From a virus (lineage: Duplodnaviria > Caudoviricetes): 24,030 nt of DNA. The stretch spans positions 1-24,030 of IMG/VR virus record IMGVR_UViG_3300032227_001426. One strand, 5' to 3'. The first letter of the stretch is position 1. Each line of letters starts with the position of its first letter. This document shows, piece after piece, positions 6,096-24,030 of the stretch. The notes under the pieces were generated by a model. The model saw only the letters and a list, made by a program, of their open reading frames with translations. It was not told where the DNA came from and searched no databases. Both the position numbers and the translations under genes were made by a program.

Positions 6096-6108
6096 AATTC
6101 CTCATTCC

Positions 6109-6145
6109 AAAAACAAAATGCCCTCACGCTGAGTAGCATGAGGGC
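6109..6145 (-). terminator. Intrinsic terminator between the HTH gene and terL
   Basis: Minus strand GCCCTCATGCT-actc-AGCGTGAGGGC (11 bp, one G-U) followed by ATTTTGTTTTT. Confidence 0.75.
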
Positions 6146-6159
6146 GATTAAGTTTGTGC

Positions 6160-6636
6160 TTAGGCGTGACGCTTCAAACTACTCTGTACTCCATAATACA
6201 GGGGTGCAGCCGAACTTAGTCCTAGTTCACGCGCCAAAACTGACAAAGAAACACCATTTTTGTATTCTAGAGCCAGTTGGTCGTGGTACTGGTCAATGCC
6301 AGTCTCTTTTGCTTGCTTTACTCTACCTACTGCATCTGCATTTTCTTGACGAGTAGCCCTAGTCTTTGGCTTGACTTCGGAAAGATTTACATCTTTCATA
6401 ATCACACGACGGCGGATGCCTGGGTAGGCAACACCAAGAGCCTTAGCAAGTTGTGGAAGACTTCCACCCTTTGACTTAAACTCAACAAGTAGTTCTGTGT
6501 AGGCTCTGCTTGCTTCGTGTTCTGGGCTTGTCTGAGTCCGTGAACCATAAGCCTTTTTAGCCAGTGGAAGGATTGGTAGGATTTTATCTGTATATTCGAG
6601 CAGAAGGTCGCTCATGTCTTTTTCTCCAATTGTCAT
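6160..6636 (-). CDS. Putative DNA-binding protein with two HTH-like repeats
   Basis: Repeats GGSLPQLAKALGVAYPGIRRRV and GVSLSVLARELGLSSAAPLYYGV. Likely start ATG 6615 (MSDLL; GGAGA upstream). Confidence 0.7.
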   Translation of the reverse strand: MTIGEKDMSDLLLEYTDKILPILPLAKKAYGSRTQTSPEHEASRAYTELLVEFKSKGGSLPQLAKALGVAYPGIRRRVIMKDVNLSEVKPKTRATRQENADAVGRVKQAKETGIDQYHDQLALEYKNGVSLSVLARELGLSSAAPLYYGVQSSLKRHA

Positions 6637-9785: not shown

Positions 9786-10782
9786 CTAAGTCCTTAAGTG
9801 TCTTCTTAATATCTTCTTTGCTAATAGTTGCTACATAACAAGCAACATCAGAGCGACCAAAACTGATAACGTATCCGTTATCAGTCGGAGCCATGCCCGC
9901 TACAAAGTCGAAACCCTCTTTATCTGTCATAACAAACTTATCTGAGATTTTAATGATGTTGTAATCATTGTCCATCAAAACAAATCTATGAGAGTACTTA
10001 AGAACTTTTACTTTAGTTCCAAAACTTATTGGATTAAACTTGTCTATGTAGTAATGCTCTGCTTCATGGATGACTGCAATGTTTGTATTCTCATTAAAGG
10101 GAAGAACTTGGGAACCACCTCTGAATGATTTAGTTACTGGATGCTTTTCTTTGTGCAGAAACTTACTTCTAGAAATTAGAACATGAGAACTATGAATAAA
10201 ATCTATCTGTGTGTCGACTGAACTTTTATGGATTGGCATCCAGTTTTTCTCTGGAACATTTTCGTCTAGAGGTTCTAACATAGAGAAAGCAACAACTTTA
10301 GGATTCTCTAGAGACTCTAAAACTATTTTACAGATTTTTGCAATTCTAAATCCTTTTTCAAAAACTGTTGCAGTAATGCAGTAGTCGTATCCGTCCCAGA
10401 AAAGTCTAGGGTCTTCAACGTCTCTTTTAAGATAAGACTTTACTGATTTTGTATCAATCTGTTTTAGAGTGTCTTCTTCAAACTGCCAAGTGTTTTTGTT
10501 TAACTTAACTAGAAATAGTTTGTTTGCAGTGGTTGGTCCATTGAGACTTGTGTCAGTAAGTCTGATTGAACCAGTCTCTATAGAGAAGTAGTAGTTACTA
10601 GAGCGGAAAGCAAGCCAGTACTCTCCTTCGTTGGAAAGCATAATTGAAGAATTGAAAGCACTCCAGTTTTCATTATCAAGAGTTGCGTATCTTCTTTGGA
10701 AGATAACATCTCCATCAAGTTCAGAGATTGTCGGAAACATTAGGGTGCTACTCTTTCGTTTTCTAGGGATATTTGTGTTCAA
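9778..10782 (-). CDS. Five-bladed beta-propeller glycosidase-like protein (GH130/GH43-like fold), paralog 1
   Basis: Motifs FNSSI, VEDPRL, EKNWMP, RGGSQ, YSHRF, FVAG, SFG. Start uncertain (TTG 10782 or ATG 10740). Confidence 0.65.
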   Translation of the reverse strand: MNTNIPRKRKSSTLMFPTISELDGDVIFQRRYATLDNENWSAFNSSIMLSNEGEYWLAFRSSNYYFSIETGSIRLTDTSLNGPTTANKLFLVKLNKNTWQFEEDTLKQIDTKSVKSYLKRDVEDPRLFWDGYDYCITATVFEKGFRIAKICKIVLESLENPKVVAFSMLEPLDENVPEKNWMPIHKSSVDTQIDFIHSSHVLISRSKFLHKEKHPVTKSFRGGSQVLPFNENTNIAVIHEAEHYYIDKFNPISFGTKVKVLKYSHRFVLMDNDYNIIKISDKFVMTDKEGFDFVAGMAPTDNGYVISFGRSDVACYVATISKEDIKKTLKDLDV

Positions 10783-11479
10783 GTCTTTTCTTTATTACTT
10801 CCACTGCTACTGGATTTATATCGTTAGTTGCATATTTTCTACCCATTTGGTTTGCTACAAAAGCAGTAGAGCCACTTCCACCAAATGGGTCGACAACAAG
10901 GTCACCTTCGTCTGTGTGGACTGCTACAAAAGGCTTTATTAACTCTTCTGGTTTCTGATTAGGATAGCCAACTCGCTCTGGGGCTGTATTTGAGAGAGTT
11001 ATGTCCCAGACTGATGTTACTTTTTTCCCACCTTCGTATCCTCTTTTAGGGGCTTTTCTGTAAGTGGTAGGAACTCTATCCTCATAGAACCTTGGAGTTC
11101 CGCTCTTGCTAAACATGATAATAGTGTTGTGTTTATTTGCCCACCATTTAGTAGCACCTCTTCCAAGTCCAAATGTCCAGATAATCTCTCCATGTGGAAC
11201 TAAACCCTGCTCTAATAAAGCGCAGTATGTTTGATGCACCGCTCTATAGTCAAGACAAATGGCAAGTACACCGTCATTTGTAAGAATCCTCTTTGCTTGT
11301 TTACCAACTCTACTCAAAAGTTCTACGACTGACTCAACATTAGTGTCTCGATATTTTTTTCCTGTGGAGTAAGTAACTTGATATGAGTCTGTGCCAAAAG
11401 GTGGGTCAGTCCAAATAAGTTGAACTGAGTCATCCTCTAAAGACGAAAGGAACTCGACAGCATCTCTACAAGAAATCAA
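10763..11479 (-). CDS. Orphan DNA amino-methyltransferase (N6/N4, beta class)
   Basis: Motif IV TDPPF precedes motif I DPFGGSGS; ERVGYPNQKP. Confidence 0.9.
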   Translation of the reverse strand: MISCRDAVEFLSSLEDDSVQLIWTDPPFGTDSYQVTYSTGKKYRDTNVESVVELLSRVGKQAKRILTNDGVLAICLDYRAVHQTYCALLEQGLVPHGEIIWTFGLGRGATKWWANKHNTIIMFSKSGTPRFYEDRVPTTYRKAPKRGYEGGKKVTSVWDITLSNTAPERVGYPNQKPEELIKPFVAVHTDEGDLVVDPFGGSGSTAFVANQMGRKYATNDINPVAVEVIKKRLEHKYP

Positions 11480-12207
11480 GGTGCTACTCTCCCGTTTTCA
11501 ACAAATGACTTATGAGTTAGTGGCATAAGTTCAGCAAAGATTTTTTCGTACTTCTCCGCTACCATTTCAATCTCTCGCTGAGGGTAGGAGGGAAAGTGCG
11601 AGCCTTCAACACTTGTTCTCAGGGATAAGAAGTTCATCAGAGCGCGAGCGTTCATCGTGACGTATGCACTTGAGTAAATGTTGAGTGGAAGGATTCCTCT
11701 AGCCACTTCTCGTGCAACGCCAGCCTCAAGCATTCCGAGGTAAGAGTTGTATGATGCCTTGCAAGCAGACATATAGCCACCAAGAACACTTGCGTATTGG
11801 TAAGGACTACCCTCTTCAAATGTGTAAGAGCCAGCCTTGCCAACTTGAACAAGTTTTCTGTCTGCAGATGGAACGTAAAACTCTGGTGCTAGTTCCTTAT
11901 AGCGACCTGACTCTTCGTTGTAAGAAGCGATGCGATGTCGCATATGCTCACGCCATACAAAGATTGGAGCCTTGACGTAGAAAGTAAAGATGGAGTGCTC
12001 GAAGGGAGAGCCGTGACGCTCCCTAAGCAGGAAGTTGATTAGCCCTCCAATCTCTGTGCCCTCTTTCTTAGGGTTAAGACTTCCAACTCCAACAGTACTT
12101 ACTCTGGCGGATTGGGCAACGATTTCATCTGAAGCATTATGTTGAACAAGTTCTACCGTCATCTCACTGCTAAAGACAATATCTTTTAGTGTTCTTCTTT
12201 TTTCCAT
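11476..12207 (-). CDS. thyX: Flavin-dependent thymidylate synthase
   Basis: HGSPFEH, RHRIASYNEESGRY (RHR-x7-S), EVARGILP, NARALMNFLSLR. Confidence 0.95.
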   Translation of the reverse strand: MEKRRTLKDIVFSSEMTVELVQHNASDEIVAQSARVSTVGVGSLNPKKEGTEIGGLINFLLRERHGSPFEHSIFTFYVKAPIFVWREHMRHRIASYNEESGRYKELAPEFYVPSADRKLVQVGKAGSYTFEEGSPYQYASVLGGYMSACKASYNSYLGMLEAGVAREVARGILPLNIYSSAYVTMNARALMNFLSLRTSVEGSHFPSYPQREIEMVAEKYEKIFAELMPLTHKSFVENGRVAP

Positions 12208-12581
12208 ACAACCCTACTAATACCTGCTGAAGCGATAAGTTTTGAGCAACCAGCGCATGGTTGACCCGTAATATAAATAGTTGCTCCCTGAAGGTCGCTC
12301 CAGGAAGCCCGTAGAAGCGCGTTTGACTCTGCGTGGGTACTCCAACATAGGTCGTAATGACCCTTTGCGTGTTCTGAGTTAGCATCAAGTGCTCTTGGGC
12401 ATTGACCTGTAAGACCGCAGGAGCGTTTGTCACCTGCTGGAGTTCCATTATATCCAGTAGAGACAATCTTATGGTCTTTGACGATTACTGCTCCGTGTTG
12501 AGCGCGAACGCAATCTCCTCTAGCAGAAACTGCTAAAGCGATATCTAAGTAGTACTCGTCCCACGTTGGGCGCAGAATCAC
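12186..12581 (-). CDS. dCMP deaminase family protein
   Basis: RPTWDEYY, STGYNG, HAE and PCAGC Zn motifs. Confidence 0.92.
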   Translation of the reverse strand: MILRPTWDEYYLDIALAVSARGDCVRAQHGAVIVKDHKIVSTGYNGTPAGDKRSCGLTGQCPRALDANSEHAKGHYDLCWSTHAESNALLRASWSDLQGATIYITGQPCAGCSKLIASAGISRVVWKKEEH

Positions 12582-12790
12582 TTAACTGGCTTCAGACGCT
12601 CTGGTTCTGCGTAGTCAGACATGTATGGGTCGTCGTCGATTGAGTCGTAGCCCTTGACTAAGCCAATCAAACCCTTAGCAACGCTAATTACTAATGAGAT
12701 AGAAAGCATTGCAACCAGTGCAATAAGAGTCCATCCTCCGATAAAAGCAAAAATGTCTAACATCTTTGACATTGATAGTGAAATGTTCAT
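12578..12790 (-). CDS. Small membrane protein
   Basis: One long hydrophobic helix; GTGA overlap with the deaminase start. Confidence 0.65.
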   Translation of the reverse strand: MNISLSMSKMLDIFAFIGGWTLIALVAMLSISLVISVAKGLIGLVKGYDSIDDDPYMSDYAEPERLKPVK

Positions 12791-12798
12791 GTTTTTCC

Positions 12799-13275
12799 TT
12801 AAAATAGTCGTGAGTCTTTGTTACTACTTTCTAGATATTCAGCAATAACTTTGTATAGTCTAGCATCATCCCCTAGAAAACCAATACCAGAATTACATTT
12901 TCTACATAAAACCATGCGAATACATTTTCCACAGGTGTGCTGCTGTTTTGGAGGACAACAAGCATGGTCATGGTCTATAACTAAATCTTTAGTTGAATTA
13001 CAGAAAAAACAATTTAAAGGTAGTAAAGATATCTGTTCCATAGAAAGTTTATGATAATAACTTATTCTATAATGATATCCGCACATTCCTTTGGCAACAT
13101 GAGCATTACCGCAACTTGGGATATCGCACACTGTTCTTCCTTTTATTTGAATGGCAGGGTCACCAAGCAAACCTTTTCTTTTTAGACGAACATAGTGAGT
13201 CTGACAATATCCTTTTGCTGTATGTAGTTTTTCACAATTTTCTACAGAACATATGGGTTTCTTTTTCTTAGACAT
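12799..13275 (-). CDS. Endonuclease VII-type (His-Me finger) nuclease with two N-terminal C-x4-C...C-x2-HY Zn repeats; probable homing endonuclease
   Basis: IDHDHACC...CGKCIRMVLCRKCNSGIG; visibly AT-rich; own TATAAT 7 nt upstream of the ATG. Confidence 0.8.
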   Translation of the reverse strand: MSKKKKPICSVENCEKLHTAKGYCQTHYVRLKRKGLLGDPAIQIKGRTVCDIPSCGNAHVAKGMCGYHYRISYYHKLSMEQISLLPLNCFFCNSTKDLVIDHDHACCPPKQQHTCGKCIRMVLCRKCNSGIGFLGDDARLYKVIAEYLESSNKDSRLF

Positions 13276-13380
13276 GTTTAAAATTATACACCCTTTTTGA
13301 CAATTGTATTGTCTTAAACGTAAACACTTGAGTTTAAGTCTATACTGTAATTACGGTTCTTGCTGGGCAAAACGCCATGT

Positions 13381-13875
13381 TTATGCCTGTGGATAACTTT
13401 TTAGTGCGTGCAAGGGTACTCCCCAAGCATTGTGTCGTTCAATTCGCCACTCTGGATGTGAGATTACTTCATCAAAGCCTATTGCTCCAAGTATCTCGAA
13501 TTTAGTAAAGAACTCGTCATCGAGGCATCTAACTCCAAATATAACTTTACCTTCGTCTTTACTCCAGACTGAAATCCAATCTTGAGTCCGTACGGAGCGA
13601 ACTTCGATATTTCCGCCGACATCTGGCAATCTACCGCGCTGACCGTGCAAAGCGTTCGGATACCAAGGAACATTCATTGTGTAGTTGTACGCCTTAGCCA
13701 CAGCCCATTCTGAAAGGATTGTTCGGATACTCGCTAGAACTTCATGCTCTAGGACTCCTTCTTGCTTTCCTTTGGCGTAGTTAGGTCGGTCCTCACTCTC
13801 CCACTTTGCTAACCATCGCTTGAGGGCAATAGTTGAGTAAACATCTACTTCGTCTTTTGTCATTGTTACAATCAT
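13381..13875 (-). CDS. Hypothetical protein, possible PD-(D/E)XK nuclease fold
   Basis: Re-started at ATG 13875 (TAATG overlap with the upstream stop) instead of 14019. Pattern SEWAVAK...LPDVGGNIEVRS. Confidence 0.6.
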   Translation of the reverse strand: MIVTMTKDEVDVYSTIALKRWLAKWESEDRPNYAKGKQEGVLEHEVLASIRTILSEWAVAKAYNYTMNVPWYPNALHGQRGRLPDVGGNIEVRSVRTQDWISVWSKDEGKVIFGVRCLDDEFFTKFEILGAIGFDEVISHPEWRIERHNAWGVPLHALKSYPQA

Positions 13876-14984
13876 TATATCTCCGAAATCGATTTTTCCC
13901 GGCTCTCCCCGATATACTCGTGGGAAAAAGACCACCGATTTGGGTTGATAGTCCATCGGGTTTTGGTCGGGTCTTGTCCGTCTTTGCGTTTCATGTGGTT
14001 CTTTGATGTGGGCTTCCAAAGTGGGGATTGGTCACGGTAGCCACCAAGTCGGGGGTGGGAAGTCTTTGAGAAGTATCGCTTGCCATTATCGGTATAATGC
14101 TTTGCTACTGCCTCTGAAAGTTTCGGTCCAAAGCCTAATCCTTGATAGTCGGGCAGGATAACTAGCCTATGCTCCCTGTAAGCGTTCTGGACAGTGCCAG
14201 ACGGATACGCAAGGGACGAAGCAAAGCCAACTAACTGGTCGTCCCAGAATGCCACATAGCAGTGTGCTGACTTGTTGAGTGACTCTGAGAGGTAGTGGTG
14301 TGAAGCGAAGTGCTTCCAAACTTCGTTTGAGCAAGGATAAATTGAGAGATGTAGTTCAGGTCGTTGAAGCCACCTCCCGTTTGACCATTCACCACGGTCT
14401 GTGTCGATAACCCAATCAGGTTCAAGATACTCTAGAATGTCTCTATGACAAGTTGCTAAGACAATTCCTTTGAGGTTGTTTTTGCGGACGTAGCGAGCCA
14501 TAGCCGTAGATGCTGACTTGGCAACATTACGGTCAACAACAGAAGTGAATTCATCTATAATAGAGTTATTGCGAAGTGAGCGAGCAAGGTCAGCACGGAA
14601 CTTCTGCCCCGTAGAAAGCGCGTAGTAAGGCTTAATCCAATCTGGTACAGACATTAGACCTGCCGCTGAAAACCGCTCATTGGCTTCTACAGCGTTGTTG
14701 AAGTGCCAAGCAATAGACCTAAATGAGTTCCAGCGGTGCTTTTCAGGCTCTCCAAACTTCCTAAGCAACGTGGACTTACCAGTACCAGAAGCACCAACAA
14801 TGACACCAATAGAAAAGTCTTTGGGTAGGTCTTTAGGAATAAGGTACGGATAGAAGTTCTCTTCGCCGTCAGATTCGTAGTCAAATGGACGAATGAGTTC
14901 CTGAGTCAGATTGTCTATGCCAACGTGAGTGGTCATAGGATTTTCGCTCTTTGTAAGAGGCTTCCAGTCTTGGTCATTTGTCAT
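13875..14984 (-). CDS. ABC-type ATPase / GNAT acetyltransferase fusion
   Basis: Walker A GASGTGKS, signature LSTGQ, Walker B IIDEF, H-loop ATCH; GNAT motif A RLVILPDYQGLGFG; no TM segments. Confidence 0.88.
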   Translation of the reverse strand: MTNDQDWKPLTKSENPMTTHVGIDNLTQELIRPFDYESDGEENFYPYLIPKDLPKDFSIGVIVGASGTGKSTLLRKFGEPEKHRWNSFRSIAWHFNNAVEANERFSAAGLMSVPDWIKPYYALSTGQKFRADLARSLRNNSIIDEFTSVVDRNVAKSASTAMARYVRKNNLKGIVLATCHRDILEYLEPDWVIDTDRGEWSNGRWLQRPELHLSIYPCSNEVWKHFASHHYLSESLNKSAHCYVAFWDDQLVGFASSLAYPSGTVQNAYREHRLVILPDYQGLGFGPKLSEAVAKHYTDNGKRYFSKTSHPRLGGYRDQSPLWKPTSKNHMKRKDGQDPTKTRWTINPNRWSFSHEYIGESREKSISEI

Positions 14985-14990
14985 AAGAAA

Positions 14991-15036
14991 ATACTACGCC
15001 TGTCGTCGTGAGAAATCAATACGAGTATGTTAGCAT
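14991..15036. promoter_or_regulatory. Overlapping divergent leaderless promoters
   Basis: Minus: TTGATT (15019-15014), 17 nt, TAGTAT (14996-14991), 6 nt, ATG 14984. Plus: TGtTAGCAT (15028-15036), 6 nt, ATG 15043. Confidence 0.7.
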
Positions 15037-15042
15037 TGTCTC

Positions 15043-15825
15043 ATGCAGGATAATGAAACAGTATGTGTAACGTGGTGTCACCACGGTCAGGTAGATGCCT
15101 ACTTTGCTCACAGCATGATGGACTTGCTTCGTCAAGAGCCTGAGCGAATCAAGAACTTTAATAGTGTTCAAGGACTTGGGCTATTGGCTAAGAGCCGAAA
15201 CATTCAGGTTCAGTACTTCCTAAATCAAACAGATGATGATTGGCTATTCATCATGGACTCTGATGAGTACGTTACGCAGGATGCCTTCAACAAACTTGTA
15301 GATGCTGCTGATAAGGATTTGTATCCTATTGTCTCTGGTTTGTGTTTCGCTGCAACCTTCCCTCAACCAAACCAACTACAACCTGTTCCTGCCATCTTTA
15401 GGTTTGATGAGAATTTTGGTCTTGTGCCGTTCTTTGAGTACCCTAAGAACTCGTTGGTGGAGATTCACTCTGCTGGAACTGGCTGTCTGATGATTCATCG
15501 CTCTGTGTTGGAACATATGCAGAAGGCTTATGAGAAATTTACTGGTCCTGATTGGGCTTGGTTCCAAGATGGTCCAATTGAAAATGGTGATGGGATTGCT
15601 TGGCTTTCTGAGGACTTGATGTTCTCTAGGAGACTAAATGAACTTGGCTACAAACTTGTGGCTCACACAGGGGCTGTATTCCCGCACCACAAAGAGATGT
15701 GGTTAATGGAGTCACACTATGAAACTTGGTTTGCTCTAGAAAAAAATAAACTCGGATACCACAAAAATAATCCTTTTGATAAAACAAAGTTTGGACAGAA
15801 CAAGAACAAACGCAAAAAAAGGTAA
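15043..15825 (+). CDS. GT-A fold (family 2-like) glycosyltransferase
   Basis: SRN, WLFIMDSD (DxD), SAGTGCLMIHRSV, SEDLMF motifs. Confidence 0.85.
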   Translation: MQDNETVCVTWCHHGQVDAYFAHSMMDLLRQEPERIKNFNSVQGLGLLAKSRNIQVQYFLNQTDDDWLFIMDSDEYVTQDAFNKLVDAADKDLYPIVSGLCFAATFPQPNQLQPVPAIFRFDENFGLVPFFEYPKNSLVEIHSAGTGCLMIHRSVLEHMQKAYEKFTGPDWAWFQDGPIENGDGIAWLSEDLMFSRRLNELGYKLVAHTGAVFPHHKEMWLMESHYETWFALEKNKLGYHKNNPFDKTKFGQNKNKRKKR

Positions 15826-15938
15826 CAGTTTCTAGAAATCTATAATAGAAAACTGATTTTTCCAGACCTCACGGGATAAAACGGATAATAATTATCTTGG
15901 TAAGAACGCCGGGAAAAGATAATAAGTGGGGGTTGGAG

Positions 15939-15968
15939 TTGGCGTTTATCATACCTGTCTGGTAGACT
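15939..15968 (+). promoter_or_regulatory. Leaderless promoter for the transglycosylase gene
   Basis: TTGGCG, 18 nt, (TGg)TAGACT at 15963-15968, 7 nt, ATG 15976. Confidence 0.65.
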
Positions 15969-15975
15969 TGGACGT

Positions 15976-16605
15976 ATGTTAGACAAAACCAAGGTTTCGA
16001 GGTCCGCGACTGCGCTTCTTGTGGCTTATGCCATATCGCTACCAATCGCCCAATCTCAGACTAATGCTAATGAAGAACAGAATAAATCCAGTGCCACCAA
16101 GCACTCCAAGACGGATAAGGTAACGCCTAAGCCTAAGCCTAAGCATAAGAAAACGCCTAAGCCTAAGCCAACGCCTACAGTCAAAAAGACTCATAAGCCG
16201 TCAAGTATCGGAACCAGTAATCCTGTAGTGATTGCTACCTCTAAGCCAAAACCGACACACGCTTCACGTTCTACCATCAGACAAACATCTGGTGTTTCTG
16301 TAAGCAAGAATCAGGCTTTTGCTAAGTACCATATGGCTACTCATTATGGTTGGGGCAGTGACCAGTACGTCTGCCTAGTGAATCTATGGACTAGAGAAAG
16401 TGGTTGGAGAGAAACTGCTCATAATCCATCGTCTGGTGCACACGGAATTCCGCAATCCTTGCCGGGAAGTAAGATGGCAAGTTCTGGTGCTGATTGGTAT
16501 TCAAACCCTGAAACACAAATCAAGTGGGGATTGAATTACATCAACAGTCGTTATGGAACTCCTTGCTCGGCAATGGGATTCTGGTACAACCATAACTGGT
16601 ATTAA
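15976..16605 (+). CDS. Secreted lytic transglycosylase (SLT/lysozyme-like) with Lys/Pro linker
   Basis: N-terminal signal-like segment; CLVNLWTRESGW (catalytic Glu), AHGIPQSLPGSKM, NPETQIKWGLNYINSRYGTPC. Confidence 0.88.
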   Translation: MLDKTKVSRSATALLVAYAISLPIAQSQTNANEEQNKSSATKHSKTDKVTPKPKPKHKKTPKPKPTPTVKKTHKPSSIGTSNPVVIATSKPKPTHASRSTIRQTSGVSVSKNQAFAKYHMATHYGWGSDQYVCLVNLWTRESGWRETAHNPSSGAHGIPQSLPGSKMASSGADWYSNPETQIKWGLNYINSRYGTPCSAMGFWYNHNWY

Positions 16606-16620
16606 TCTGCTAGAAGCCTT

Positions 16621-16654
16621 AGCCCTCACCTTTTAGGTGGGGGCTTTGTGCTTT
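16621..16654 (+). terminator. Intrinsic terminator after the transglycosylase gene
   Basis: AGCCCTCACCT-ttt-AGGTGGGGGCT 11-bp stem followed by TTGTGCTTT. Confidence 0.8.
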
Positions 16655-16655
16655 G

Positions 16656-16756
16656 GTTATATTGTTGACCTACAAATGTAACAAATACCCCCCTTTTGTT
16701 ATATTGTTGCACTCCAATGCAACTTTTGGGTGCTATTTGTTGCATTGTAATGCAAT
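16656..16756. repeat. Three related dyad-containing direct repeats (putative protein-binding array)
   Basis: GTTATATTGTTG at 16656 and 16698; dyads TTGCA-N6-TGCAA at 16707-16722 and 16740-16755; degenerate copy at 16663-16683. Confidence 0.7.
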
Positions 16757-16785
16757 AAAGTGGAATAAGGGAGGCACTGCTCCAG

Positions 16786-16828
16786 AATAAGAAAGACCCC
16801 CTAGAAGAGAGAAACTAGGGGGACTTTC
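16786..16828 (-). terminator. Intrinsic terminator closing the putative ncRNA
   Basis: GAAAGTCCCCCTAG-tttctctctt-CTAGGGGGTCTTTC followed by TTATT. Confidence 0.75.
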
Positions 16829-17138
16829 GTTGTCACTCATTCGCAAGCGGGTGACTCCACTTGGGACAACTATGGAATGCAAAGGAGGTAAGAATTCCAT
16901 AGTCGTGCGAAGACTAAGAGGTGGAAGGTGAGACTTCACTCACACACAGGGGCAATCCTTGAATCAGTTTAGCCCTGTGACCACAAGTTGTCTGCCGACA
17001 TAAGTAAGACTTTGCAAAAGCCAGCCTCTCTAAGCAGTTGCCCTTGAGAGACCTTTTCCTTACCTTGTGTGCATTACTGGCTACGATTGCGACACCAGCA
17101 TTTCTGCCACTCCCCAAGATAACCGTCGCTATCTCGTT
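16788..17138 (-). ncRNA. Putative ~350-nt structured non-coding RNA of unrecognised family, with an anti-SD loop
   Basis: Bounded by a consensus promoter and a terminator; no credible ORF; about 10 helices, several with G-U pairs that form only on the minus strand. Confidence 0.7.
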
Positions 17139-17144
17139 AGGTAT

Positions 17145-17174
17145 AACCTAGCAGATAGGTTTGGGGGCTGTCAA
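17145..17174 (-). promoter_or_regulatory. Strong SigA-type promoter for the putative ncRNA
   Basis: Perfect TTGACA (17174-17169), 18 nt, extended -10 TGcTAGGTT (17153-17145); predicted +1 at A 17138 or 17137. Confidence 0.75.
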
Positions 17175-17181
17175 ATCGGGG

Positions 17182-17535
17182 TCAGTCTTTTTTGTTTTCC
17201 CCTGATTTTGCAAGGACAAATAGGACTTCAATCTCATCTGAAGAAAGGCTTTCCCTGTGCTCTAGGTAGAGTTCTGCGCTGTCTGGAGTGAGAGAGATGA
17301 GGTGGTCGTCCTCGGTGAACTCAATCTCTACCAAGCCCTTCTGCCATAGAGAGAAGGCAGCATCATCTGTCTTTTGTATGTGCTCGTCGTAGAGTTCAGG
17401 AAGAACTTCTTTGCACTTCTTTGTGACCGTGTAGATTGGCTCATCGTTGTGGTCAGTACCGATGTACTCCAATGCACCTTCAGAGATGAGGTAGTCGATG
17501 AACGCTTCAATGCCTTCTTCTTCTTCAGGTGTCAT
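17182..17535 (-). CDS. Acidic hypothetical protein (possible winged-helix)
   Basis: ATG with AGGA-like SD; 117 aa; coherent gene packing. Confidence 0.7.
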   Translation of the reverse strand: MTPEEEEGIEAFIDYLISEGALEYIGTDHNDEPIYTVTKKCKEVLPELYDEHIQKTDDAAFSLWQKGLVEIEFTEDDHLISLTPDSAELYLEHRESLSSDEIEVLFVLAKSGENKKD

Positions 17536-17547
17536 AATTCCTAATCC

Positions 17548-18633
17548 TTAAATCTTAGGAAGCCGAAGACTGCTAAGAATGTTCTTTAGTGGTACGGATG
17601 CGATATGTGCGGAACTATCTAAAGCACCAAAAGTAACAAGCACGTTCTTTTCGTGAATAGCAATTCCTGATGCAAATTCTACACTCTTATTAAGGAAGTT
17701 AAATTTGTCAGTAACCTTAAGAATTCTTCCTTGCTCATCAAACTGCACAAAGCGATGTGAATAACACCTACGATTGATTGGTGGCTTAGTGATGTCAATA
17801 AAACGCATCTTTTGAGAGAGGTCACGCTGATGAATGATTCCTAGTAGTGTGCCGTTCTCTAGACCTACAAGTTGAGAACTACCGCTGATTGGAAGTCTGT
17901 GTCCTCCAACATCCACTAACTTTCTATCATCGATGTTGAAAGTTTCTGCAGACTGATACCAGTAATCAAAAGAAACGTCATCAGGATTGAATAGAGATAG
18001 TCTGTCTACTGGCATCCAATTCTTTTCATTGACAGTTCTACCCTTTGGAGAATCAAAAATATCAAGTGATGTAGCCTTTGGAGTTTTTCCTGAGAGGTCT
18101 AGTTTCATGGAGCACATCTGAACCGCTGGACTTTTATTAGGTTCGTAGAAAGTTGCAGAGATTCTTAGTCCGTCTTGAGCATGGTGAAGTCTTCCATCTT
18201 CAACACCGCGAACTACTTCATAAGGTGCTTTACCATATGCCTCTGACAAATCGACTTCTCTAATTTTAGAGAGTCTAAGCGTATTTGGATTTAAGTTTGC
18301 AATAAACATTCTATTGCGATACATAGACTCACTGCCATAAGTTCCATCCACAAAAACATCAACATAGTACTCACTAGGATTCTTGTAAGAGTCTGGAGTG
18401 TTGAGTTCTTCGCCTAGTTCTGTTTGCCACTCTGGTCTGTGGTCTCTTAGACCGCCGTTGGTAGAACGGAGTAAGACAAGATAGCCGTGCTCTTCTGTGT
18501 AGCATACGGAAGGATTGAAGGCAGTCCAGTCAGGTTCTTCGCAGTAACGTGCAAGTTGTGATACCTTAGCACCAAGCATTTCAGTTGCGGTTGGTATACT
18601 TCTTAGGTCTTCTGGGTTGACTGGTAGTGGCAT
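17548..18633 (-). CDS. Five-bladed beta-propeller glycosidase-like protein, paralog 2
   Basis: FNPSV, VEDGRL, EKNWMP, SGSSQ, YSHRF, EFASG. Start corrected to ATG 18633 because the longer ORF overlaps the tRNA; TGtTACGCT lies 7 nt upstream. Confidence 0.7.
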   Translation of the reverse strand: MPLPVNPEDLRSIPTATEMLGAKVSQLARYCEEPDWTAFNPSVCYTEEHGYLVLLRSTNGGLRDHRPEWQTELGEELNTPDSYKNPSEYYVDVFVDGTYGSESMYRNRMFIANLNPNTLRLSKIREVDLSEAYGKAPYEVVRGVEDGRLHHAQDGLRISATFYEPNKSPAVQMCSMKLDLSGKTPKATSLDIFDSPKGRTVNEKNWMPVDRLSLFNPDDVSFDYWYQSAETFNIDDRKLVDVGGHRLPISGSSQLVGLENGTLLGIIHQRDLSQKMRFIDITKPPINRRCYSHRFVQFDEQGRILKVTDKFNFLNKSVEFASGIAIHEKNVLVTFGALDSSAHIASVPLKNILSSLRLPKI

Positions 18634-18663
18634 AAGATAAAGCGTAACATAAAATGAAGTAAT

Positions 18664-18736
18664 GTCTCCGTGGCGCAATGGATAGCGCAACAGGTTTCTA
18701 CCCTGTCGGTTGTAGGTTCGAGTCCTACCGGGGACG
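18664..18736 (+). tRNA. trnR: tRNA-Arg (anticodon UCU), CCA not encoded
   Basis: Acceptor GTCTCCG/CGGGGAC, D arm GCGC-AATGGATA-GCGC (A20), anticodon arm ACAGG-TTTCTAC-CCTGT, T arm GTAGG-TTCGAGT-CCTAC, discriminator G. Confidence 0.96.
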
Positions 18737-18740
18737 CAAA

Positions 18741-18769
18741 TTGAAAATGTCAGTGATGTATGATAGAGT
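18741..18769 (+). promoter_or_regulatory. Leaderless promoter
   Basis: TTGAAA, 17 nt, (TGa)TAGAGT, 6 nt, ATG 18776. Confidence 0.72.
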
Positions 18770-18775
18770 CGGGTT

Positions 18776-19096
18776 ATGGGAAAAAAGAGAAACGTAGTGT
18801 CACATCCAGAATCTTGGACTGTGACCAATGAAATTCAAGTAAATGGTCGTACCGTATCTGTGGGGACAGAACTTTCTATTAAGGGTGAGTCTGGTCGCTT
18901 TAGATTTATGAAGCACGTTAAGACTCAGACATCAGAGTGGATTGATGTTATCGGTGGGAAGAAAGGATATTCAACCTGCCGTTCATTCCGTGTAAGCCAA
19001 GTAAAGACGGTACACTGGAAGAATCGAACAGATAAGAATATTGTCAAGGAACGCAAAGAGCGTTTGAAAGCAGAGTCGGGGTCGGAGTCAGAATGA
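18776..19096 (+). CDS. Basic hypothetical protein (beta-rich, actinophage-type)
   Basis: Own promoter; ATGA overlap with the next gene. Confidence 0.75.
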   Translation: MGKKRNVVSHPESWTVTNEIQVNGRTVSVGTELSIKGESGRFRFMKHVKTQTSEWIDVIGGKKGYSTCRSFRVSQVKTVHWKNRTDKNIVKERKERLKAESGSESE

Positions 19097-19569
19097 ATCA
19101 ACTCGCAGAGATTGCTTTAGAAGAAGTTGGATTCGTCAACGGTGAGAACCTAGACAACAAATATGGCAAATGGTATGGGCTTAATAATCAGCCCTACTCT
19201 GCGATGTTCATTTCGTGGTGCTTTGGAAAAGCGGGTAGAAGTGATTTAGTTGAAGTTTCAAGTAAAAAGGGATTCGCTTCAAATAAGATTGCTTACGAAC
19301 ACTTCTACAAAAAGTATGAACAGTATAAATTCTGGCAGGTGCGAGTTGGGGACTTGGTGTTCCTAGACTTCGATGGAAAGAAGAAAGACCTGCAGGTGGG
19401 GATTGTGGTGGGGGTTGGTCGTAAGTTTGGTTATCCGTTATGGATTGAAACTGTAGAAGCGGATACGACAGCAGACAATGCAAGCGCAGAGAGTAAGGGT
19501 CTGCGTACAGGTGTCTACCGTCGTACCCGCGTCAAGAAAGATGTATTAACTATCTTTCGGTTGCTTTAG
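19093..19569 (+). CDS. CHAP-domain-like protein with degenerate catalytic residues
   Basis: NKYGKWYGLNNQPYSAMFISWCF, GDLVFLDF, QVGIV, TVEADT align by eye to CHAP motifs WCAxFVSW, GDxVFF, HVGIV, TIEGNT. Confidence 0.75.
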   Translation: MNQLAEIALEEVGFVNGENLDNKYGKWYGLNNQPYSAMFISWCFGKAGRSDLVEVSSKKGFASNKIAYEHFYKKYEQYKFWQVRVGDLVFLDFDGKKKDLQVGIVVGVGRKFGYPLWIETVEADTTADNASAESKGLRTGVYRRTRVKKDVLTIFRLL

Positions 19570-19832
19570 GAAGCAACTCCATCTTGGCTTGGAAGTTCTA
19601 AATAGATTTCTTTACAAGTTGGACAGACTGGAAAGTTGTCTCCATCTCTGGAGGGAGTCCACACCTTACCGCAAAGTGCGATACTCGGTGTGCCGTTAAC
19701 CATTGACTCCATAACATCGTCCTTGTGAACATAATGTGAGAAGCGTTCGTGGTCTCCGTTGTCAATCTGGAAGTGCGTTGCCAAGTCAACTTCAGTAACG
19801 CTTCCCATAAGGGGTTGTAGTTCTTCGCTCAT
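19566..19832 (-). CDS. DUF3039-family protein
   Basis: GDHERFSHYV...GTPSIALCGKVWTPSRD...PVCPTCKEIY. Confidence 0.85.
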   Translation of the reverse strand: MSEELQPLMGSVTEVDLATHFQIDNGDHERFSHYVHKDDVMESMVNGTPSIALCGKVWTPSRDGDNFPVCPTCKEIYLELPSQDGVAS

Positions 19833-20020
19833 AATCCGAATTCCTTCTTTCGTTCTTTAGAGTAAAATCCATCGCCTTGGAATGTTACTGGAGTTGATTC
19901 AAAGACGCGCTTCAAAGTAGTTCCACACTCAGGGCACTCGAAGGCTTCTTGGTCAGCAAAGATTGAGCGAACCTCTTGGTAAGGATGCTCGTTCTCGCAG
20001 ATGTATTCGTAAGTAGGCAT
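19829..20020 (-). CDS. FmdB-family zinc-ribbon protein
   Basis: MPTYEYIC...CPECG...RVF...FQGDGFY. Confidence 0.88.
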   Translation of the reverse strand: MPTYEYICENEHPYQEVRSIFADQEAFECPECGTTLKRVFESTPVTFQGDGFYSKERKKEFGL

Positions 20021-20029
20021 ATGTTTATT

Positions 20030-20347
20030 CTATCCTAAGTGGTCTGCTAGTTCAGTAAGGAGTGTTGGCTTATTTTTAGCACCAAGAATCTCCTTTACTT
20101 TCTTGCCTTTTACGAAGACACGCATGGTAGGAATCGAACGGATTCCGTCCATAAGTTCAGGTTCATCATCAACATTAACCTTTGCAATGATTACCTTGCC
20201 CTCGTACTCGTCTGATATTTCCTCAAGGATTGGGAGCATCATCTTGCATGGTCCGCACCAGTTAGCCCAATAGTCAACGACTACTGGAACTGATGCGGAT
20301 GCAATGAACTTGTCAAAGGTCTTTGTGTTTAGGATTTCGATTGCCAT
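20030..20347 (-). CDS. trxA: Thioredoxin
   Basis: WCGPC active site and SIPT cis-Pro loop. Confidence 0.95.
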   Translation of the reverse strand: MAIEILNTKTFDKFIASASVPVVVDYWANWCGPCKMMLPILEEISDEYEGKVIIAKVNVDDEPELMDGIRSIPTMRVFVKGKKVKEILGAKNKPTLLTELADHLG

Positions 20348-22405
20348 TTACTTATCCTTGAGATTCTCAGTAATAAGTTTTACTTCACAGGAGTCTGTAC
20401 TGCAGTAGGATTCGCCAACAGCATCGGCAGACATTCCAGCATAGACACCAGAGAAGTCGATTGGGAACAACTTAAGAAGTTCTGCTTCGTAATCTTCTTC
20501 AGAGATTTGCGTGTAAGGCATCTGTGGGTAGGTGAAGTTACCAGACGGTAGGAATGAAACCGTCTTCAACTGACCGTCGTACATGTGCAGAACGGTTCCG
20601 ATGTGGTCTGCTTCAGACTCTGGGTCGAATGAGATTGTTACAGATACAGAGTTGTCTGACCAGTAACGCTGTGCAGTCGCTGCAAGTGACATCTTCTCAA
20701 AGATAGTTACGTCACGCTCTGCACGTTCAGCATCAGACTTGATTGGGAAGAATACAACACTGGTGGTGTCAGGAGATTCTGACGCAGGTTCAACACGGTA
20801 GTTAGCCATCTTGAAAAGCGGAAGCATTGGGTCGCTGTTACCAAAACGGATTGCACGCAAGAAGTACTTACCGCCGGGAGTCCAGTGAACGCCGGGTGAT
20901 TCTCCAGCAAGAATGGATACAGTTCCTGAAGGCTTAACGGTTGTCGTCTTGATTGACTCGCGAATACCTAGCCACTCTGAGTAGAGAATGTCGTAACGCT
21001 TGATGTTCTCGTATCCTGCATCCATCCAGTCGCGCAGGGTTGGTAGACCCTTACGGTCAGCAAAGTTAGCAACACCTGACATAGAAGTTCCGATGCGACG
21101 GTTGCGTTGCATAATTGCGTTGGTCTCTTCCCAATGCGTTGGGAGAAGCGTAACGGTCTTAGCGTAAAGGTACGCAAACTTCAGAGTTCGGTTGTAGTCT
21201 TCAATTGAATCGTGACGGTTGAGGTAAGTTTCAACAAGCGTGCACATCTCGAAAGATTCTAGAGACTGTTCAGCGCAAGGATTGTAACCAGCAATGCGGT
21301 GGTCCTTGTTGTTGATTGGGTCAGCAAGACGACCGTACTTCTTTGATACGTCCATCCAGATTACGCCGGGTTCTCCGTTGCGAGCAATACCATCAACAAT
21401 GTTTGTCAGGTCCTTACCAACTTCAACAGCAACAGAGTTGTTGGACATCCATCCCCAGCCCGGTGCACTAGGGTCATATGAGTTGCGCTCAGGGAATACT
21501 TCAGCGTTCTTGAGATTCAAGAAGTCTTGGTCGTCAATAGAACCGATTAGGAGTTCTGCAGAGCGACGTACATTTCCAGATACAACGCACACACCGATGA
21601 GATTGCCAATGTCAGCAATATCCCTCTTCGTAACCAGTTCACCAGAACGCCCCTTAAATAGTCCATTGATGTAATCGTGTAGTCGCTCCAGCGGAGCGTG
21701 ACCTGCAGCCGTTCCACCAAAGGTAGCAATAGGTGCGCCCTCTGGACGGATTTGGCTGTAATCAAATTCGTAGGTTGGTTGGTCCTGCTTGAGGTAAGAG
21801 TTGATAAGAGCAACGGTTGAGTCAACCCAACCCTCGCGAGTATCTGGGATAGAGAAAACTTCTACATCAGACTTAGGCTTGTAGATAGTGAAATCTTTCT
21901 CAGCACCCTTATCATCAAAGCCAACACCAACGCCGAGCATTGACGCTTCCATCAAGAAAGCGAAAGGCTTTGCAGGATTGTTCTTGGTCATTTCCAATGT
22001 TGATACGAACGCGCAGTTCTGAAGAGCAGCGGAGTTCTTCTGCACGTTGACAATTGGAGTTCCCATAACCCACAAGCCTCTGCCTGGGGGAGTCCACTTC
22101 AGATTGAACAGACGGTCGTATGCTTCCTTAGCGGATGCAGAAGCCTTAGCATCAGACCACGGAAGACGGTTCGTCTTGCAATGTTCTTTCTGGAGTGAGT
22201 ACATGCCATTGATAACGCGCTCGCAAACTTCAGCCCACGTTTCCTTCGTGCCGTCTTCCTTCTTGCGTGAGTAAGTGCGTAGGAAAGTAATCTCGCCTAC
22301 TGAATTACCGCCAGCATCTCGATAGCCGAATGGTGCTTTCTTATCTTTATAAGAAGCAACAAACTCCTCGTTGAGACGGAAGGAAAATTGGACAGCAGTA
22401 GACAT
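20348..22405 (-). CDS. nrdJ: Class II (adenosylcobalamin-dependent) monomeric ribonucleotide reductase
   Basis: PPGRGLW, LQNCAF, GNVRRSA, NPCAEQ, CTLVE, NRRIG, TVKPSGTVS and a C-terminal C-x4-C tail. Confidence 0.93.
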   Translation of the reverse strand: MSTAVQFSFRLNEEFVASYKDKKAPFGYRDAGGNSVGEITFLRTYSRKKEDGTKETWAEVCERVINGMYSLQKEHCKTNRLPWSDAKASASAKEAYDRLFNLKWTPPGRGLWVMGTPIVNVQKNSAALQNCAFVSTLEMTKNNPAKPFAFLMEASMLGVGVGFDDKGAEKDFTIYKPKSDVEVFSIPDTREGWVDSTVALINSYLKQDQPTYEFDYSQIRPEGAPIATFGGTAAGHAPLERLHDYINGLFKGRSGELVTKRDIADIGNLIGVCVVSGNVRRSAELLIGSIDDQDFLNLKNAEVFPERNSYDPSAPGWGWMSNNSVAVEVGKDLTNIVDGIARNGEPGVIWMDVSKKYGRLADPINNKDHRIAGYNPCAEQSLESFEMCTLVETYLNRHDSIEDYNRTLKFAYLYAKTVTLLPTHWEETNAIMQRNRRIGTSMSGVANFADRKGLPTLRDWMDAGYENIKRYDILYSEWLGIRESIKTTTVKPSGTVSILAGESPGVHWTPGGKYFLRAIRFGNSDPMLPLFKMANYRVEPASESPDTTSVVFFPIKSDAERAERDVTIFEKMSLAATAQRYWSDNSVSVTISFDPESEADHIGTVLHMYDGQLKTVSFLPSGNFTYPQMPYTQISEEDYEAELLKLFPIDFSGVYAGMSADAVGESYCSTDSCEVKLITENLKDK

Positions 22406-22447
22406 AGATAACCTCTTTTGTGGGGGATGATTTAGTGCAGGATTAAA

Positions 22448-22456
22448 ATACTAGCA
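22448..22456 (-). promoter_or_regulatory. Extended -10 promoter (TGcTAGTAT) for the nrdJ-trxA operon
   Basis: TGn-TANNNT ~43 nt upstream of the ATG; AGAGG SD. Confidence 0.55.
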
Positions 22457-22474
22457 GGTCTTGCGGTGGAGTAT

Positions 22475-22738
22475 CTACTCGGTAGGAGGAATACTCTGAC
22501 TTTTTCTTAGTGGAAGTCCATTGATTTCAGCGCGAACAACTTCACTACTTGTGAGAATACCAAGAATAAACTGCTCCGACTCTCCGCGCATATACGCTTC
22601 ACTACGAATAGTGTTCAGTTTATTTAAAATTCTGAACAGTCGTTCGCTATCTACAATTGAGTCGTTTTTGTGGTAAGTATCTTCCACTAGAAATCTCCGG
22701 GCTGTACTTGAAGACACTTGAGACCAATCTCTCGCCAC
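22475..22738 (-). CDS. Hypothetical protein
   Basis: Fills the gap on the coding strand; start uncertain (52-bp overlap with the upstream gene). Confidence 0.55.
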   Translation of the reverse strand: MARDWSQVSSSTARRFLVEDTYHKNDSIVDSERLFRILNKLNTIRSEAYMRGESEQFILGILTSSEVVRAEINGLPLRKSQSIPPTE

Positions 22739-23109
22739 ATATCTACAACTTGTTGACGGTCATCAAATACGCAAAGGACATCGAACTCGTCTTTGATATG
22801 CGTTTCGTAAATCTCTTGCTTGACAATAGCGTCTTTACGGAAGTCACCTGCTTGTCGCATATAGAGACCGAAGTAGTAAGGGCAGTGAAGTGAAAGCCAA
22901 TCTCTAGTTACAGAGATGCAGTCGTCACTTCGTCCTGTGACAAAAAGAACTCTGTATCCCTGAGTCCATAGAGCGTGAACAACTTCAAGAATTACGGGGT
23001 CGTGCTTGTCGGTGATTGCTTTATCGTAGTCGTAGATGTCTCTGTCGGTCTTGTGAGAAACCGTTCCATCAATATCAACAATGATTGCTTTAGGTAATGT
23101 AGTTGTCAT
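22687..23109 (-). CDS. HAD-family phosphatase (T4 PseT/PNK 3'-phosphatase-like domain)
   Basis: DIDGT, VTGR, K, FDDR motifs I-IV; no kinase domain. Confidence 0.88.
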   Translation of the reverse strand: MTTTLPKAIIVDIDGTVSHKTDRDIYDYDKAITDKHDPVILEVVHALWTQGYRVLFVTGRSDDCISVTRDWLSLHCPYYFGLYMRQAGDFRKDAIVKQEIYETHIKDEFDVLCVFDDRQQVVDMWREIGLKCLQVQPGDF

Positions 23110-23372
23110 TTAATTTCCATCGTTTCTTGAGTCTCTCTGTTGAGCAACTCAACGGTTGCATCTGTTTCAATCCATACTCTTGCACCACATACTAGCGGAT
23201 TCTCTGGCTCGTACACAACCTTGCTTGGTCCATTGATTACAACCTCGTGACCGTAGCCAATAACCTTTTGCCCAATACGAACGGTTACTGCTGGGTTGGT
23301 AGTTCCGTGCTTCTTGTTAGAGCGGATTGTGTTGCTATTGATGTGTATTCGTTTGGTCTTCGTTTTTAACAT
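23106..23372 (-). CDS. Phage hypothetical protein
   Basis: IHIN...GPSKVVY.P..PL.CGARVWIET pattern; start moved to ATG 23372 (GGAGA SD). Confidence 0.7.
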   Translation of the reverse strand: MLKTKTKRIHINSNTIRSNKKHGTTNPAVTVRIGQKVIGYGHEVVINGPSKVVYEPENPLVCGARVWIETDATVELLNRETQETMEIK

Positions 23373-23583
23373 TCTTAGTTCTCCATTCATTAAAAGATTT
23401 GATGTAGACGATTGAATAAGCAACCGCCATAAAAATAAATCCGTATTGCTTGGTTGCTAATGAGTAAGCAATCCAAATGCATTCGTTTGTGAGAAGTACA
23501 AGCCATCCCCAGATGGTTTTACGACCAACAAAAAAGATTCCAGTAACACCGATGATGCCTAGAACGTAAGACCAGTACGTCAC
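23335..23583 (-). CDS. Three-TM membrane protein, PnuC/SemiSWEET half-size-like
   Basis: Three hydrophobic helices with WGW...NE..W...QYG pattern. Confidence 0.6.
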   Translation of the reverse strand: MTYWSYVLGIIGVTGIFFVGRKTIWGWLVLLTNECIWIAYSLATKQYGFIFMAVAYSIVYIKSFNEWRTKNVKNEDQTNTHQ

Positions 23584-23690
23584 TTGTCTTTATTCTTTTT
23601 GTTTGAGATGTAGTTGGTTAGTCCTACGCAGAAGTTGAGAAAAACAAATAAGAGAATTAGTACTTCTACAACACTAACAGCAATCTTCAT
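23580..23690 (-). CDS. Small single-TM protein (36 aa)
   Basis: Below the ORF-track cutoff: MKIAVSVVEVLILLFVFLNFCVGLTNYISNKKNKDK; GTGA overlap with the next gene. Confidence 0.6.
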   Translation of the reverse strand: MKIAVSVVEVLILLFVFLNFCVGLTNYISNKKNKDK

Positions 23691-23814
23691 TCTTTTTCCT
23701 TTTTTCTTTGTAGTCATCGATAACTAATGAGACCAGCATGAGCACTGCTCCAGCACCAATGATACTAGTAGTGGCTACGATGATGCCTGAGATTATGTTC
23801 TCTGTTGTGCACAT
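23674..23814 (-). CDS. Small single-TM protein (46 aa)
   Basis: Below the ORF-track cutoff: MCTTENIISGIIVATTSIIGAGAVLMLVSLVIDDYKEKRKKNEDCC; TAATG coupling. Confidence 0.6.
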   Translation of the reverse strand: MCTTENIISGIIVATTSIIGAGAVLMLVSLVIDDYKEKRKKNEDCC

Positions 23815-24026
23815 TACTGCTCACCGTCTAACGCTTTGATGGTTGGGCATGGGTATGGAACTGTTACGCCCATATCTGTTTTGTCGCAGGTCTTGCAAGT
23901 ATTCTCGTACTCTTTAGGAACATGCAACTCACGCACACGCTGGATGGATGCTTTTAGAAAGTTAATCTCTTCCAAAGCATATTCCAAACTGTTGTCTGTT
24001 TCAGACCACTTCATTAAGTTTCTCAT
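23814..24026 (-). CDS. Actinophage-type hypothetical protein with putative Zn-binding motif
   Basis: RVRELH...CKTC...YPCPTIKALD motif. Confidence 0.7.
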   Translation of the reverse strand: MRNLMKWSETDNSLEYALEEINFLKASIQRVRELHVPKEYENTCKTCDKTDMGVTVPYPCPTIKALDGEQ

Positions 24027-24030
24027 TTAC

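Follow-up and report, generated by a model that had tools for sequence, protein, structure and literature searches.

A predicted phage RNA gene combining a divergent manA RNA with a pseudoknot module outside Rfam

The virus record IMGVR_UViG_3300032227_001426, which we analysed over its entire 24 kb (24,030 nt, completeness ~18%; hereafter, the window), very probably carries a conserved, folded and protein-free RNA gene on its minus strand, in which a single predicted promoter and a single terminator flank two modules. The 5′ module is a divergent manA RNA, tied by homology to members of RF01745 that score above the family cut-off, while the 3′ module represents a small covarying pseudoknot family missing from Rfam. 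The two modules are separable, as seen in relatives that possess the second without the first.

The phage itself likely infects Actinobacteria, because its terminase is 74% identical to that of Actinomycetia phage DSL-LC01 and ~60% identical to those of Microbacterium phages, and because it encodes DUF3039 and DUF7246. Sequencing runs containing parts of the RNA stretch bear the labels aquatic, lake, river, freshwater, subsurface or simply metagenome, and none of those listed is an RNA run. No transcript was observed.

Architecture and coding status of the RNA unit

The unit and its convergent neighbor comprise the following elements, in window coordinates.

17145..17174, minus strand: predicted promoter, TTGACA (17174-17169), an 18-nt spacer and TG-n-TAGGTT, with TAGGTT at 17150-17145
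16918..17138, minus strand: divergent manA RNA (module 1), with the RF01745 match over 17133-16918 (216 nt)
17115..17136, minus strand: manA 5′ hairpin with GACG loop, 9/9 pairs, A-U changed to G-C in relative L001
16923..17114, minus strand: manA closing helix (17114-17110/16927-16923), 5/5 pairs, followed by ACC
16982..17069, minus strand: manA central arm CACAAG/CUUGUG, a lineage-specific branched insert replacing the L5/L7 region of manA
16928..16979, minus strand: manA 3′ arms, 16979-16945 and 16943-16928, the latter with its loop shortened to 6 nt
16832..16916, minus strand: 3′ module (module 2), ~85 nt, a hairpin and then an H-type pseudoknot
16906-16866, minus strand: module 2 hairpin, carrying the CU-rich loop
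16879..16893, minus strand: CU-rich loop with ACCUCCUU
16862-16857/16850-16845, minus strand: module 2 pseudoknot stem S1, 4/6 pairs with double-sided change
16855-16851/16836-16832, minus strand: module 2 pseudoknot stem S2, 2/7 pairs with double-sided change in the alignment
16911-16907/16844-16840, minus strand: possible third helix of module 2 (candidate only)
16786..16828, minus strand: intrinsic terminator, stem 16828-16791 pairing 13/14, then a U-rich tail
15976..16605, plus strand: transglycosylase gene (PHROG 12661, E 6.5e-38)

Both the promoter-like TTGACA-18-TAGGTT and the terminator sit where the original prediction had placed them, and the promoter sequence would set the start of transcription near 17138. 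Its ranking as the best promoter in the window was not borne out, as a sigma-70 scan of 10000-24030 failed to list the promoter at 17174-17145, whose -10 element matches at 3/6 positions. Instead, we base the promoter on its conservation, with 88-97% identity among the window and three related loci, L001, L002 and L119. The 3′ module and terminator are similarly well kept at these four loci (86-99% identity), and similarity to the relatives drops to ~55% immediately past the terminator, which is also the level of the window's flanks.

Folding the 353-nt minus strand gave a z-score of -4.42, with none of 100 shuffles folding as well, as compared to -1.59 for the plus strand of the same stretch. 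We confirm the earlier observation of G-U pairs in five of the helices. All helices listed at the time are present and fully paired; the list had lacked the manA closing helix, pseudoknot stem S1 and the loop 16893-16879.

A protein-coding function was considered and dropped, since both overlapping reading frames are broken in relatives: a 67-aa ORF shrinks to 48 and 49 aa, and a 68-aa ORF to 33 and 22 aa, in the two full-length relatives. Together with the covarying helices described below and the convergent orientation of the next gene, an arrangement repeated at L001, L002 and L119, the broken frames bear out the proposal of a free-standing minus-strand non-coding unit.

Several further observations concern the surroundings. 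L001 (4299-5075), L002 and L119 have a glycosyltransferase gene immediately before the promoter, a gene that is missing from the window at 17174-17182. The interval 16605-16785 holds the transglycosylase terminator and several inverted and direct repeats, which are not conserved in the relatives. The strongest fold among 40 sampled windows (z -5.05) belongs to positions 6001-6230 on the plus strand, with several hairpins just before the terminase gene; manA itself directly precedes the terminase gene in two related records, G093 and G072. Finally, more diverged homologs are present in runs X2 and X4, where several diverged variants have in common an identical 34-nt node (16977-17010).

Module 1 is a divergent manA RNA

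A scan confined to 231 nt matched module 1 to RF01745 over model positions 1-192 of 192, with 41.2 bits and an E value of 1.2e-9. Because this score falls short of the gathering cut-off of the family (55.2 bits), we file the window copy as a divergent manA variant and not as a cut-off member. Rfam scans of the whole window and of 601 nt as well as a genome-level manA search all missed the match, which was filtered out in bigger scans and recovered only with the 231-nt one. The original prediction had named a hit to a known Rfam family as the finding that would remove novelty, and for the 5′ 216 nt manA is such a family, albeit at a score below its cut-off. What had been regarded as one RNA of an undescribed class is thus catalogued in its 5′ part, and only the ~85-nt 3′ module is not.

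Homologs provide the link to the family proper. Five of 79 related virus records carry manA, two of them above the cut-off; the G070 relative of module 1 reaches 59.1 bits and the G081 copy 62.3 bits. One of two GenBank phage records, that of Rhodococcus phage Francesca, contains an unannotated copy with 72.9 bits between tRNA-Met and tRNA-Lys (L318:2981-3167; PP978770.1:76482-76664). Other gaps of the Francesca tRNA array also appear structured. A model built from three window-type copies only (R1) matched all five manA carriers supplied, namely, G081, G070, Francesca, G063 and G093, with E values of 5e-9 to 7e-5, and had zero matches in a 20-kb control locus. This homology ties the window manA to the above-cut-off members G081, G070 and Francesca. 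With the default first look, R1 recovered a single record out of 67, overlooking four carriers of manA in that set. BLAST of the RNA returned two real matches in 42 records, the remainder being matches of 11-22 nt, and no match in 50 of 78 further records or in cultured phages.

The window copy also has the conserved linker motifs, which occur in 24 seed rows as well, and the core helices of manA. The GACG loop of its 5′ hairpin is part of the Rfam consensus, and its closing helix, in which 4/5 pairs have changed on both sides across seven homologs, encloses a four-arm junction; L001 folds unaided into this cloverleaf. The junction linker bases appear to resemble the class II tRNA core (tRNA-Leu/Ser consensus). 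Within the central arm, 68 nt are unaligned to the Rfam model. In the 3′ arms, where the 16979-16945 helix was verified as 7 bp, L119 has four double-sided changes.

Covariation was assessed in a model-fitted R1 alignment of seven rows, window excluded. Of its 285 cells, 90.9% pair, and 30/57 pairs have changed on both sides, a level that none of 500 shuffles equaled; slid controls gave 39-46%. Independently of model fitting, covariation is evident from the changes in L119, of which the two within stem 16943-16928 are seen again in run-X2 and run-X11 contigs, and from one run-X3 contig (depth 3.5), where G-C has become U-A at 17052/17024 and U-A has become A-U at 17049/17027. A group I intron was considered and dropped, as the strand that would serve as P7 belongs to a covarying local stem in L119.

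As for the loops through which manA might associate with itself, the L5-L7 pairing (GGUGG/ACCA in the manA consensus) is absent in the window, where the branched insert has replaced the region. For L8-L9, there is a single 4-bp candidate, loop 16963-16960 with 16938-16935, which is identical in 3/3 window-type copies and shows no covariation. With one interface absent and the other a 4-bp candidate that does not covary, assembly here is a possibility; given the replaced L5/L7 loops and the shortened L9, cage formation may have been lost.

A pseudoknot module with a CU-rich loop

Short-stretch Rfam scans of module 2 gave no match better than E 0.13. Nine of ten candidates in a pair table form both pseudoknot stems, and a MAFFT alignment of six cores, in which the S2 of the window is out of register, pairs in 91.9% of 74 cells, with 0/500 shuffles matching the score. 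The candidate failing the pair table is L232; both L232 and L240, which had come up as pattern matches, were rejected on the pseudoknot test. The pseudoknot loop, GCGAA, is invariant. A complementary UUCGC at the 5′ end is kept in 8/9 copies and never varies, so the corresponding helix is unsupported by covariation. The GCGAA linker resembles that of an HDV-like ribozyme; this candidate was dropped because P3/L3 is absent.

Pattern searches found module 2 in 6/77 and 4/76 records, with zero control matches, and a descriptor search of 4.4 Mb yielded 12 distinct matches, eight of which we judged real, with two control matches. Other pattern scans mostly returned chance matches (1/3, 1/2, 47/48, 2/3, 8/9 and 20/28), a loose pattern matched at control level, and for neither module did the pattern have an exact match in GTDB genomes.

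That the unit is modular follows from two kinds of relatives. In L002, promoter and 3′ module are retained, whereas ~220 nt from the predicted start onward, and with them manA, are missing; compared to the manA-bearing L119, its promoter is 97% and the downstream 300 nt are 94% identical. In G044 and G045 (terminase identity 93%), the same gene position is occupied by a different 5′ hairpin, the shared 3′ module and, behind it, a terminator. Module 2 without manA also occurs in G061 and, in two copies, in G047. In all four G records, it is preceded by a TTGACA promoter of its own. In G044/G045, TTGACA is followed by TATAAT at 15 nt or by TAATCT at 17 nt, and in G061, where the module ends in a U-run, by TACTTT after an 18-nt spacer. 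The two G047 copies (L290:10700-10900) are arranged in tandem directly before a small gene, and no evident terminator intervenes. At three loci (L220:7226-7290, L233 and L251), we noticed a long 5′ hairpin of varying sequence in place of manA ahead of the pseudoknot module.

The CU-rich loop, found in four of the five module types examined (the exception being the second G047 copy), retains its core in L001, L002 and L119 despite a rewritten stem. It resembles the anti-Shine-Dalgarno sequence at the end of 16S rRNA. Using crude gene calls, strong pairing of the window loop was predicted for 0/26 start regions of G000 (shuffled mean 1.05) and 4/104 of G001 (shuffled mean 5.5), and that of the G044 loop for 23/126 start regions of its own genome (shuffled mean 16, maximum 23). 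Targeting of the phage's own ribosome-binding sites by the window loop was rejected, there being no enrichment over shuffled loops.

A tentative mechanism, its alternatives and known systems

We propose, with a confidence that stays somewhat short of even, that a free-standing manA RNA is produced together with a pseudoknotted small RNA that blocks ribosome-binding sites. One transcript would run from ~17138 to ~16788 and would probably be cut between the modules near 16920, in the manner of manA copies in tRNA arrays. The manA part would then likely act as a product in its own right rather than as a gene switch, and may self-associate by loop-loop pairing through the 4-bp candidate described above. 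The exposed loop of module 2 would likely pair with ribosome-binding sites and lower translation, with host mRNAs possessing strong Shine-Dalgarno sites as the predicted targets, and the pseudoknot may shield the module from 3′ nucleases. Going further, one could imagine module 2 as the founder of a phage class of pseudoknot-armored anti-Shine-Dalgarno RNAs that shut off host translation and, attached to a self-assembling manA, form an RNA-only particle displaying many anti-ribosome-site loops; we regard this as improbable.

That manA acts other than in cis in the window seems to us quite probable. With the next gene convergent, it cannot regulate a downstream gene or serve as a 5′-UTR switch, and its own predicted promoter, the lack of anything downstream and its presence or absence in otherwise near-identical loci argue that the RNA is itself the product. 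The catalogued view would have manA as a cis-regulatory element, here controlling the terminator or persisting as a stranded relic. In its favor, PMC2864571 classes manA as cis-regulatory and a probable riboswitch, and in four of five manA-scoring relatives (G081, G093, G072 and G063), manA is succeeded by a terminator with a same-strand gene behind it. However, no same-strand gene lies behind it in the window, L001 or L119, and the compensatory changes that continue within this branch indicate that it is not decaying; we accord the cis reading a low probability.

Alternatively, manA could be a tRNA-shaped decoy whose four-arm core sequesters tRNA-handling or tRNA-cutting proteins of the host during infection, its assembly being incidental. 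We consider this unlikely, albeit the least unlikely of the alternatives. The cloverleaf topology and the class II tRNA-like linker bases would fit, and so would the location of manA copies behind tmRNA or tRNA genes in G070, G081 and G063, a location that speaks for our main reading as well. In contrast, closing helix and last arm amount to 5+5 bp, not 12, manA has neither a canonical T-loop nor the GG of a D-loop, and neither ARAGORN nor the tRNA model calls it. These clusters contain more RNAs: in G070 (L301:13091-14315) and G081 (L312), a phage tmRNA with the tag AESRSAFALAA precedes several folded RNAs that lack annotation, among them a hairpin with a mini-cloverleaf that both phages have directly before manA, and only tmRNA, manA and tRNA-Gly match Rfam.

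Regarding module 2, we prefer to read it as a likely antisense RNA against ribosome-binding sites. Its loop could also act within the molecule, its partner being the first strand of the pseudoknot or manA 17065-17059, to give a two-state switch or a single 350-nt fold. Positions 17065-17059 and 16892-16886 are complementary at 7/7, and loop/S1-strand pairings of 4-6 bp are possible by eye in the window, G044, G047 copy 1 and G061. Yet 17063-17059 has a local partner in 17008-17004 (5/5), L002 retains the loop despite the absence of manA, and short pairings of CU-rich with G-rich sequence easily arise by chance, which leaves an intramolecular role a little less likely than the decoy. The least probable proposal is a protein-binding or nuclease-blocking pseudoknot, e.g., a type III antitoxin mimic with an incidental loop: the H-type fold with its invariant GCGAA loop and the tandem G047 copies, one of them without the CU-rich loop, speak for it, but Rfam antitoxins gave no match up to E 10, most carriers are single-copy and no toxin gene lies behind.

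manA is a catalogued probable riboswitch recently reported to form RNA-only cages. The window branch extends it to phages that probably infect Actinobacteria, and Francesca, a cultured phage with an unannotated above-cut-off copy, opens the way to deletion and expression tests. Module 2 adds a small covarying pseudoknot family to those outside Rfam. Among titles and abstract openings, with most subscription papers outside that scope, no report on manA in actinophages or on the pseudoknot module was found.

Of the larger known RNAs, Ms1 (RF02566) is alike in total length alone and was rejected for want of a model match at E up to 10, while RNase P and SRP had no match. tmRNA was dropped for lack of a conserved tag frame; the original prediction had likewise noted no hallmarks of tmRNA, RNase P or SRP and no sequence similarity to Ms1. 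With class II tRNA and the tRNA-like domain of tmRNA, manA presumably has in common the cloverleaf arm order and core linker bases. The third pair is G-U in the window and L119 and A-U in L001. A 5-bp closing stem replaces the 7-bp acceptor, and anticodon, T-loop consensus and conserved tag frame are missing. Module 2 resembles 6C/B11 (RF01066), a small RNA of Actinobacteria, in a hairpin loop with predicted complementarity to ribosome-binding sites and in its probable actinobacterial setting; B11/6C represses by loop-to-RBS pairing (PMC10470900). Whereas 6C/B11 has two hairpins with C-run loops, module 2 is phage-borne, with one CU-rich loop and a pseudoknot, and the RF01066 model does not match it at E up to 10.

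The closest relative is manA itself. Published manAs assemble via kissing loops into decamers and a 60-mer, as described in the main text of a cryo-EM preprint (10.64898/2026.07.01.735769), from which the word "tRNA" is absent, although its supplements may bear on tRNA likeness. The window copy and RF01745 agree in the GACG 5′ hairpin, the 5-bp closing helix with its GGGAGUG start, the GAA and UAA linkers, the four-arm junction, the GGU linker, the CUUCC-ACC end and the full-length model match. They differ in the branched insert that stands for the L5/L7 loops and in the last loop, which measures 6 nt versus ~11. Known manAs come from cyanophages or Photobacterium, and PMC2864571 places the family, described there as probably cis-regulatory, in marine metagenomes, cyanophages and gamma-proteobacteria; the window copy resides in a probable actinobacterial phage. 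Unlike 5′-UTR manA, it has its own predicted promoter and no downstream gene, and is joined to a second RNA.
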